Assembly: GCF_003334255.1 (NCBI RefSeq)
Contig: NZ_QOWU01000155.1
Length of the DNA stretch: 1,543 nucleotides
Strand: one strand, 5' to 3'
Source of the DNA: Escherichia coli
GTDB lineage: Bacteria > Pseudomonadota > Gammaproteobacteria > Enterobacterales > Enterobacteriaceae
The notes under the pieces were generated by a model. It saw only the letters and a program-made list of their open reading frames with translations. It was not told the DNA's origin and did no database searches. Positions 1 to 1,543 of the stretch are shown piece after piece. The number at the start of each line of letters is the position of its first letter. Within the stretch, counting starts at the first letter, position 1. The position numbers and the translations under genes were made by a program.

Positions 1-62
1 AATCGGTGGAGCTGCATGACAAAGTCATCGGGCATTATCTGAACATAAAACACTATCAATAA
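1..62 (+). CDS. Possible 3' end of an upstream protein-coding gene (partial; ...SVELHDKVIGHYLNIKHYQ*)
   Basis: Frame 3 is the only + frame open from the window edge; it runs from nt 3 to a TAA at 60..62, while the other two + frames hit stops at 17..19 and 40..42. The stop lies 21 nt before the ORF1 start, an operon-like spacing. Only 19 codons are visible, so this is weakly supported. Confidence 0.25.
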   Translation, partial: SVELHDKVIGHYLNIKHYQ

Positions 63-83
63 GTTGGAGTCATTACCGTAGAT

Positions 84-479
84 ATGAAGGGAACGAAAAA
101 CGCCTTTGGTTTAGGTTCTGCGCCTAATGGACAAAAAATTGGCGCTGCATCCATTGGTATTGACAGGTCTAATGGTGGGATTCACGCGGCGGACGATACA
201 GGTGAAATTCCTGTCGACCTGATTCAAACTGACCACTGGTCAGCAGCGCCCCCCACATGGAAAGCCTCATCTAATGGCGCATTCTGCTCGCTGACAAGTT
301 GCTCAGCAATCGAGCGCGGTTATTCTGTTGCAAAAACAGGGGAACTGACACCTGTTGCCATTACAGCGGTCACCTTCCCGTTACTGATTGATGCTGCGGT
401 AAATGACAATACTATTCTTGGTTCTGATGAAACGATCAAACTGGATGGTAACGTCACTATCAGCGTTCAGTATTTATAA
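84..479 (+). CDS. Hypothetical protein, 131 aa; possibly fimbrial-subunit-like, but no signal peptide detected
   Basis: ORF from the six-frame track. The ATG at 84 is the first start after the in-frame TAA at 60..62. GGAG at 66..69 is a possible RBS, though the 14-nt spacer is long. The protein is rich in Gly/Ala/Ser/Thr/Asn, has two close cysteines (CSLTSC) and ends in an alternating-hydrophobic strand with a penultimate Tyr (VTISVQYL), loosely like the C-terminal strand of chaperone-usher pilins. The N-terminus (MKGTKNAFGLGSAPNGQK...) is not hydrophobic and does not look like a Sec signal peptide. Confidence 0.55.
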   Translation: MKGTKNAFGLGSAPNGQKIGAASIGIDRSNGGIHAADDTGEIPVDLIQTDHWSAAPPTWKASSNGAFCSLTSCSAIERGYSVAKTGELTPVAITAVTFPLLIDAAVNDNTILGSDETIKLDGNVTISVQYL

Positions 480-650: not shown

Positions 651-1325
651 ATGCTCAGACACATTACATTCACTGTATTTATAACAACATCAATGAATAC
701 CTTAGCCACAGGGATGGTTCCTGAAACATCAGTATTGCTGGTTGATGAAAAGCGTGGTGAAGCTAGTATTAATATTAAGAATACAGATGATCATCCTTCA
801 TTGCTTTACACCACCATTGTTGATTTGCCTGAAAGCAATAAATCAATTCGTTTAATCCCGACTCAGCCCGTTATTCGTGTTGAAGCCGGTCAAGTACAAC
901 AGGTTCGATTTTTACTTCAGGCGACTGTTCCTCTGCAATCAGAAGAGCTGAAACGCGTAACGTTCGAAGGTATTCCACCAAAAGATGACAAGAGCAGCAG
1001 AGTTACTGTTTCAATTCGTCAGGATCTACCTGTACTGATCCACCCGGCTTCCCTGCCGGAAGAGCGAGAGACCTGGAAATTCCTGGAATGGCGTAAAAAT
1101 GGCGACCAAATTGAGATTAGCAACCCCAGTAATTATGTCGTTCGTATGACCTTACAATTTAAAACGCTCCCTTCAGGAAAAACGGGGGCTATAAATAAGA
1201 CCTATTTTCTACCACACACCAGTACAACTACTGCATTAACAAACGCTACGGATACAAAAGTCGAGTTTTACCCAGCCAGCCGATATGGTTATCGCGGTAA
1301 TAAATATGTCACTGACTTAAAATAA
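651..1325 (+). CDS. Periplasmic pilus (fimbrial) assembly chaperone, PapD-like fold; divergent, possibly alternate (CS1/CFA-I-like) or archaic clade
   Basis: ORF from the track, 224 aa. A TAA at 648..650 sits immediately upstream in frame, so the start at 651 is unambiguous, and it has an AGGAG RBS. N-terminal signal peptide MLRHITFTVFITTSMNTLA. By-eye matches to PapD-family chaperone motifs: LIPTQPVIRVEAGQVQQVRFLL (cf. PapD ATPPVQRLEPGAKSMVRL), FEGIPPK (cf. REIPP), RVTVSIRQDLPVLIHPASLP (the alternating G1 donor strand, cf. LQIALQTKIKLFYRPAA) and ISNPSNYVV (cf. IENPTPYYV in the C-terminal domain). Size and two-domain layout fit the family. Confidence 0.75.
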   Translation: MLRHITFTVFITTSMNTLATGMVPETSVLLVDEKRGEASINIKNTDDHPSLLYTTIVDLPESNKSIRLIPTQPVIRVEAGQVQQVRFLLQATVPLQSEELKRVTFEGIPPKDDKSSRVTVSIRQDLPVLIHPASLPEERETWKFLEWRKNGDQIEISNPSNYVVRMTLQFKTLPSGKTGAINKTYFLPHTSTTTALTNATDTKVEFYPASRYGYRGNKYVTDLK

Positions 1326-1345: not shown

Positions 1346-1471
1346 ATGTTAAAAAAAACGTTACTGGCCTACACCATTGGTTTTGCCTTTTCTCCCCCAG
1401 CCAATGCAGATGGTATAGAGATTGCCGCTGTTGATTTTGATCGGGAAACATTAAAATCACTAGGTGGGTGA
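1346..1471 (+). CDS. Short signal-peptide ORF (41 aa), probably the 5' end of the next pilus gene (usher or subunit), ended by an in-frame TGA; possible pseudogene or readthrough
   Basis: ATG at 1346 lies 20 nt after the chaperone stop, with GGAG at 1334..1337 as RBS (8-nt spacer). Translation is MLKKTLLAYTIGFAFSPPANA|DGIEIAAVDFDRETLKSLGG*, a canonical Sec signal peptide with an A-x-A cleavage site. TGA is at 1469..1471. The same frame continues open from 1472 to the window end (CCQLTDLVYDGVFEVLQWLLFLSA). This ORF is not on the supplied track; I translated it by hand. Confidence 0.4.
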   Translation: MLKKTLLAYTIGFAFSPPANADGIEIAAVDFDRETLKSLGG

Positions 1472-1543
1472 TGCTGCCAACTTACTGATTTAGTGTATGA
1501 TGGTGTTTTTGAGGTGCTCCAGTGGCTTCTGTTTCTATCAGCT

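Follow-up and report, generated by a model that had tools for sequence, protein, structure and literature searches.

An intact yhcA gene between two IS1 ends in Escherichia coli: a beta-fimbrial chaperone that lacks the classical carboxylate anchor and probably uses a non-classical one

How might a pilus chaperone hold its subunit if it lacks the two basic residues with which PapD anchors the subunit's C-terminal carboxylate? The question is raised by an open reading frame at positions 651-1325 of a stretch of E. coli DNA 1,543 bases long (the whole of it called the window below, with all features lying on its + strand). A first-pass annotation, made from the letters of the sequence, took the product to be a PapD-like chaperone in which the equivalents of PapD Arg8 and Lys112 are not conserved, and saw in this a sign either of the alternate (class 5) or archaic clade or of a different anchoring mode. 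The matter is of more than local concern, as pilus chaperones have no functional site more highly conserved than the one that anchors the carboxylate, which is also a target of pilicide design.

The window is made of three parts: the end of an IS1 element, a piece of E. coli chromosome, and the start of an IS1 element. Its first part (1..77) comprises the last 77 bases of IS1, with the right inverted repeat ending at position 77, and is 100% identical to the end of an IS1A copy in E. coli CFS3246 (locus L001, 3693-3769). Its final part (1467..1543) comprises the first 77 bases of IS1, opening with the left inverted repeat GGTGATGCTGCCAACTTACTGAT..., and is 100% identical to the start of an IS1 copy in the same strain (L001, 3001-3078). 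The two termini have the same orientation and are each exactly 77 bases long, and a chromosomal segment so placed between two IS1 copies has the layout of a composite transposon. Flanks of equal length are what a short-read contig would show if it stopped inside a repeat at the k-mer length of the assembler, which suggests that the window is a contig of this kind. A search of 5,426 complete E. coli genomes found neither IS1 junction as a single unbroken match; in other strains, IS1 is found upstream of gltF or elsewhere within yhcD.

The chromosomal part (78-1466) matches the gltF-yhcA-yhcD region of CFS3246 with 1 mismatch in 1,390 bases. That sole difference, A to C at window position 249, replaces a threonine of GltF by proline (SAATPTW to SAAPPTW). 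Searches of the window found no Rfam match at E <= 1 and no PADLOC match. Promoter-like and terminator-like sites occur in the window at chance frequency, no more often than in shuffled sequence, and a sigma-70-like site at 599-628 (TTAACA, an 18 nt spacer and TATCAT, scoring 10/12), 23 bases upstream of the start of yhcA, is likewise at chance level.

The frame encodes an intact protein of 224 amino acids (651..1325), identical to WP_001311157.1, the annotated product of yhcA in E. coli CFS3246 (b3215 in K-12). It is virtually certain that the frame is YhcA, the chaperone of the beta-class chaperone-usher operon gltF-yhcA-yhcD-yhcE-yhcF. Here, as in intact loci, it is flanked by gltF upstream and yhcD downstream, which RefSeq labels as a DUF1120 protein and a "fimbrial biogenesis outer membrane usher protein", respectively, with yhcA itself labeled a "fimbria/pilus chaperone family protein". 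The upstream neighbor is a 3' fragment of gltF (78..479), collinear with the annotated gltF of CFS3246, that retains codons 122-254 and the stop and is separated from yhcA by a 171-base spacer. IS1 has replaced codons 1-121, and with them the signal peptide and any upstream promoter are gone. The downstream neighbor is the start of yhcD, the beta-clade usher gene, of which 121 bases (40 codons; 1346..1466) remain before IS1 cuts it off. With gltF and yhcD both truncated by IS1, the strain has no working beta-fimbrial operon, and the intact yhcA has probably been left behind as an isolated remnant of it. The yhc operon has been assigned to the beta family, named after an usher clade of Nuccio and Baumler, and constitutes the beta locus of E. 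coli (PMC5216030).

That YhcA is a PapD-like chaperone, as the annotation had it, is borne out by the profile-HMM searches it had proposed as a check, which gave significant chaperone matches. With the NCBIfam model NF007392 (PRK09918, "fimbria/pilus chaperone family protein"), whose curated cutoff is 183 bits, the protein reaches 319.7 bits over residues 2-224, and its residues 21-135 match the Pfam model PapD_N (PF00345) with an E-value of 1.1e-23 over model positions 1-125 of 126. Pfam PapD_C (PF02753) does not match YhcA at E <= 10; a precomputed match to PF02753 is present in some members of the YhcA family. Domain 2 alone (window 1047-1322) found no relevant match among PDB sequences, so that the equivalences given below for this domain come from profile alignment only, yet the full YhcA model and the classical chaperones can be superposed across about 185 residues.

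In a phmmer search of PDB sequences, the whole protein matches Caf1M (1.2e-10), DraB, CupB2, SafB, PapD and SfaE, and a search with a distant member of the family (P0256) ranks PapD first. The AlphaFold2 model of mature YhcA, built on an alignment of 107 sequences, is very confident (pLDDT 97.0, pTM 0.90) and has the two-domain boomerang fold. Inspection of the sequence predicts a Sec signal peptide of residues 1-21 (651..713) with cleavage after A19-T20-G21; A19 and G21 are each conserved in 81 of the 107 sequences, and G21 aligns with residue 1 of mature PapD. The only residue invariant across all chaperone-usher chaperones is a proline of strand D1, CsuC Pro59 (Pakharukova et al. 2015, PLoS Pathog 11:e1005269, PMC4654587). 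YhcA P73 aligns with PapD P55 in a TPPV motif, with proline in 77 of 107 sequences at this column and in 70 at column 72.

The anchor residues were examined in a set of 107 full-length members of the YhcA family, mostly 50%-identity cluster representatives, drawn from 1.84 billion proteins, the most distant of them about 25% identical to YhcA. The control set consisted of PapD (100% identical to PDB 1PDK) and 117 further sequences, 118 PapD-family sequences in all. When the two sets are aligned by hhalign (probability 98.9%, E-value 1.4e-16), PapD R8 falls on YhcA V28 and PapD K112 on YhcA P127, in a register pinned by shared residues to either side of the two sites (YhcA/PapD: R76/R58, R86/R68, P132/P117, W142/W128, N158/N145, P188/P175). 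Val28 (codon 732..734), which is also the equivalent of Caf1M Arg20, lies in a column that is hydrophobic family-wide (V 53, L 14, A 11 and I 10 of 107). Pro127 (codon 1029..1031), the equivalent also of Caf1M Lys139, lies in a column of 97 prolines, 6 glycines, 3 alanines and 1 valine. Neither column contains a single Arg or Lys, whereas R8 and K112 are invariant in the control (118 of 118). YhcA and its whole family are without the classical Arg8/Lys112 anchor, and the claim made by eye in the annotation was correct.

Three other residues, all of them polar, are among the best conserved of the family. Arg102 (codon 954..956), in strand F1 of domain 1, is Arg in 94 of 107 sequences; Arg165 (codon 1143..1145), in domain 2, is Arg in 104; and Tyr185 (codon 1203..1205), also in domain 2, is Tyr in 95, Phe in 5 and Trp in 3. 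The full pattern x28-P127-R102-R165-Y185 is found in 80 of 107. Such residues have a known counterpart. In CsuC, R89, Y196 and R174 form a two-domain carboxylate anchor, established by crystallography and mutagenesis, to which R89/Y169/R148 of EcpB and R90/Y182/R154 of CfaA correspond, and the carboxylate-holding role of the CsuC and EcpB residues was shown by mutagenesis (PMC4654587).

The sequence of EcpB was taken from the K-12 genome and checked against PDB 5DFK; in mature numbering, its Arg89 is the R of YYRIVWF, its Arg148 the R of NATLRIL and its Tyr169 the second Y of ENYYLMP. An hhalign comparison of the beta family with 115 EcpB-family sequences (probability 92.4%, E-value 6.9e-8) places R165 on EcpB R148 and Y185 on EcpB Y169, which by the equivalences of PMC4654587 are the positions also of CsuC Arg174 and Tyr196, respectively. 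Arg102, the equivalent of Arg89 in both EcpB and CsuC, falls one column off EcpB Arg89 in this alignment, because the EcpB sequence (YRIVWFD) is longer by one residue at this point. KRVTFE of YhcA matches YRVYFE of CfaA with no offset, and Arg102 thereby coincides with CfaA Arg90. From the alignment with EcpB and CfaA, I infer that R102, Y185 and R165 would lie near one another in the cleft of YhcA. Of the explanations that the annotation had offered for the missing pair, a different anchoring mode is the one that agrees with the conservation of R102, R165 and Y185; the alternate or archaic clade did not hold up, for reasons given below.

The strand that would be donated to the subunit was compared in the same way. 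The G1 segment V118-T-V120-S-I122-R-Q124 (1002..1022) has alternating hydrophobic residues, of which V118, V120 and I122 stand opposite PapD L103, I105 and L107 (by alignment only), and V118, V120, I122 and Q124 stand opposite EcpB A111, A113, A115 and I117 in the hhalign alignment. Residue 124, Gln in 91 of 107 sequences, is thus at the P0 position, occupied in EcpB by Ile117, and Gln at P0 implies that the donor register is unshifted. By alignment, then, strand G1 has the P1-P4 register, with no P0 donor, of the classical FGS and FGL chaperones (gamma, kappa and pi), and not the shifted register of the non-classical ones, in which P0 is hydrophobic. The same is said of the beta-fimbriae chaperones, Gln at P0 and no register shift, in the legend to S9 Fig of PMC4654587. 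Overlapping the end of the donor segment is a motif strongly conserved in the beta family, R-Q-[D/N]-[L/I]-P (R123-P127, window 1017-1031), whose columns hold R in 79 sequences, Q in 91, D in 50 or N in 40, L in 66 or I in 27, and P in 97.

The missing anchor might be an artefact of alignment, the classical pair being present after all at shifted positions, with K34/R35 or a neighbor in the role of Arg8 and R123 or H131 in that of Lys112. R123 lends itself to this idea, as it is a basic residue in most of the family (adding 6 Lys to the Arg count just given) and, standing four residues before the Lys112 position, shares with it by parity one face of strand G1, and position 131 is Arg in 21 of 107 sequences (22 with Lys). 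However, three independent alignments arrive at the same register: that of hhalign with the PapD family, that of HMMER with Caf1M, which sets IKLLVRP opposite LPVLIHP of YhcA, and that of the HMMER family profile with CupB2, which sets GTRVVF and FKLFFRP opposite etsvvlv and lPviihP. K34 and R35 stand opposite PapD S14 and E15, in the A1-B1 loop, with Arg or Lys at their columns in just 21 and 28, respectively, of the 107 sequences, and none of columns 24 to 33 has more than 6 Arg or Lys. R123 stands opposite PapD Q108 and R116 of mature EcpB, a residue with which EcpB does not anchor (PMC4654587), and H131 stands opposite PapD R116, which is not an anchor residue. K34/R35, which the annotation itself had named as the mapping that would overturn its claim, were rejected as a displaced Arg8, being unconserved and in a loop, and R123 and H131 were rejected as a displaced Lys112 by the alignment; the artefact is very improbable. 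Nearly as improbable is decay, by which yhcA would be degenerating within a cryptic operon and the loss of Arg and Lys would represent inactivating substitutions. The state of the operon invites the thought: in K-12 it is cryptic, with yhcE interrupted by IS5, no beta pilus has ever been characterised or observed (PMC5216030), and in the window IS1 disrupts the operon on both sides of yhcA. But V28, P127 and the R102/R165/Y185 triad are conserved over the 107 sequences, down to about 25% identity, which points to purifying selection on a family-wide design. Moreover, the yhcA frame is unbroken and does not differ from the allele common in E. coli, the structural model is very confident, and the operon is carried undisrupted by many E. 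coli strains.

There is also the possibility, a shade less remote than decay though still quite unlikely, that the clade of YhcA is the alternate (alpha, class 5) or the archaic (sigma) one and that the protein works entirely as do CfaA or CsuC, with a shifted donor strand and a molten-globule-like subunit. The anchor triad is common to YhcA and those families, and the profiles offer further points of contact: searched against PDB sequences, the beta profile reaches CsuC over its full length with an E-value of 2.6e-12 (rank 12), comparable to PapD (2.9e-13) and FimC, and the beta family aligns with the EcpB family at 92% probability, as against no alignment (0.06%) of the PapD family with the EcpB family. 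Foldseek comparisons of the YhcA model give TM scores of 0.76-0.82 for classical chaperones vs 0.65-0.67 for CsuC, and CsuC, EcpB and CfaA were not its closest structural neighbors. YhcA falls in neither the alpha nor the sigma clade. The beta family is intermediate, closer in fold and profile to the classical chaperones.

The reading that I prefer, and consider probable as a whole, is that YhcA is a hybrid, combining the fold and donor register of a classical chaperone with a non-classical two-domain anchor. YhcA would be exported by the Sec pathway and cleaved near Gly21, after A19-T20-G21. It would then take up DUF1120 subunits, namely GltF and YhcF with their V-x-Y-L ends, through donor-strand complementation: strand G1 would present V118, V120 and I122 to the subunit without a shift from the classical register, leaving Gln124 at P0. 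The C-terminal carboxylate of the subunit would be clamped in the cleft between the domains by Arg102, the hydroxyl of Tyr185 and Arg165, with Arg102 the predicted primary anchor. Asp125 and Arg123, within the R-Q-[DN]-L-P motif, may position Arg102 from the neighboring strand, and R123 may take part in a charge network with Asp125 and Arg102. Anchoring by Arg102, Tyr185 and Arg165 is, judged from sequence comparison, a likely mechanism.

The other partner in such a clamp is the end of the subunit. GltF, a putative beta-fimbrial subunit of the DUF1120 type, ends in ISVQYL, and its C-terminal carboxylate is the one that YhcA would be expected to anchor. Of the two candidate clients, GltF has SVQYL and YhcF has SVVYL at its C-terminus; LHYL and LHYI are the endings of two subunit-like proteins encoded, on a metagenomic contig, beside a chaperone 34% identical to YhcA. 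Since these ends are common to GltF, YhcF and the metagenomic proteins, the C-terminus to be anchored is conserved, and it is of classical appearance. The motif may be written for DUF1120-type beta subunits as [ST]-[VL]-x-Y-[LI] (SVQYL, SVVYL, TLHYL, TLHYI) and is located at window positions 462-479 and within L008 904-1620 and L005 4596-5948. The C-terminus of YhcE is different (LVEAK). The penultimate Tyr of the motif recalls the classical pilins, despite the non-classical anchor of the chaperone, and because of this residue the C-terminus of a beta subunit could sit otherwise than that of CsuA/B.

At the metagenomic locus (L005 4596-6696), the chaperone gene, whose product retains the P/R/R/Y residues, comes after the two subunit-like genes. 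No usher gene lies in the 1.6 kb downstream of it; the gene that follows, on the opposite strand, encodes an SLT lytic transglycosylase. Upstream are regulators of the CaiF/GrlA, Trans_reg_C and GerE types.

I have also considered a third, hybrid mode of assembly, in which a chaperone of classical-like fold and donor register holds a folded subunit with penultimate Tyr and clamps its carboxylate in the non-classical, two-domain way, a clamp to which the family-specific motif R123-Q124-[D/N]125-L-P127 might contribute. This seems to me unlikely, if less so than the alternatives weighed above. Were it true, the bound C-terminus would have a geometry matching neither that in PapD nor that in CsuC. 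E. coli YhcA together with GltF or YhcF makes a tractable system in which such a mode can be tested.

Much of this picture is not new. On the strength of a sequence alignment, the beta-fimbriae chaperones were described in 2015 as lacking the classical anchor residues and possessing analogues of the non-classical ones, and a classical/non-classical hybrid was proposed for them in the same paper (Pakharukova et al. 2015; PMC4654587). Given that statement, the loss and replacement of the anchor in the beta class is already known, and yhcA is a known, annotated gene. What is added here is independent confirmation, in the form of a larger family alignment, a check of the register by profile-profile comparison, a confident predicted structure and a ranking of folds. 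No experiments on beta fimbriae or on DUF1120 subunits later than 2015 turned up in a search of the literature. The beta class indicates that a classical fold is able to carry a non-classical anchor, a point of relevance to the divergence of the chaperone-usher families.

It remains to place YhcA beside the systems it resembles. Compared with the classical FGS chaperones (PapD, FimC, YadV, SafB and CupB2, matching PF00345 and PF02753), YhcA has Val in place of Arg8 and Pro in place of Lys112, and its domain 2 falls below the Pfam threshold for PapD_C. At the positions of R102, R165 and Y185, PapD has Tyr87, Thr152 and Met172, in contrast to CsuC, EcpB and CfaA, which have in common with YhcA an Arg in strand F1 of domain 1 and a Tyr and an Arg in domain 2. 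With respect to the beta-fimbriae chaperones considered by Pakharukova et al. (2015), YhcA is the same protein, from the same gltF-yhcA-yhcD operon. And with respect to the common E. coli locus, the YhcA protein of the window is the same, but the flanking genes, gltF and yhcD, are here truncated by IS1.
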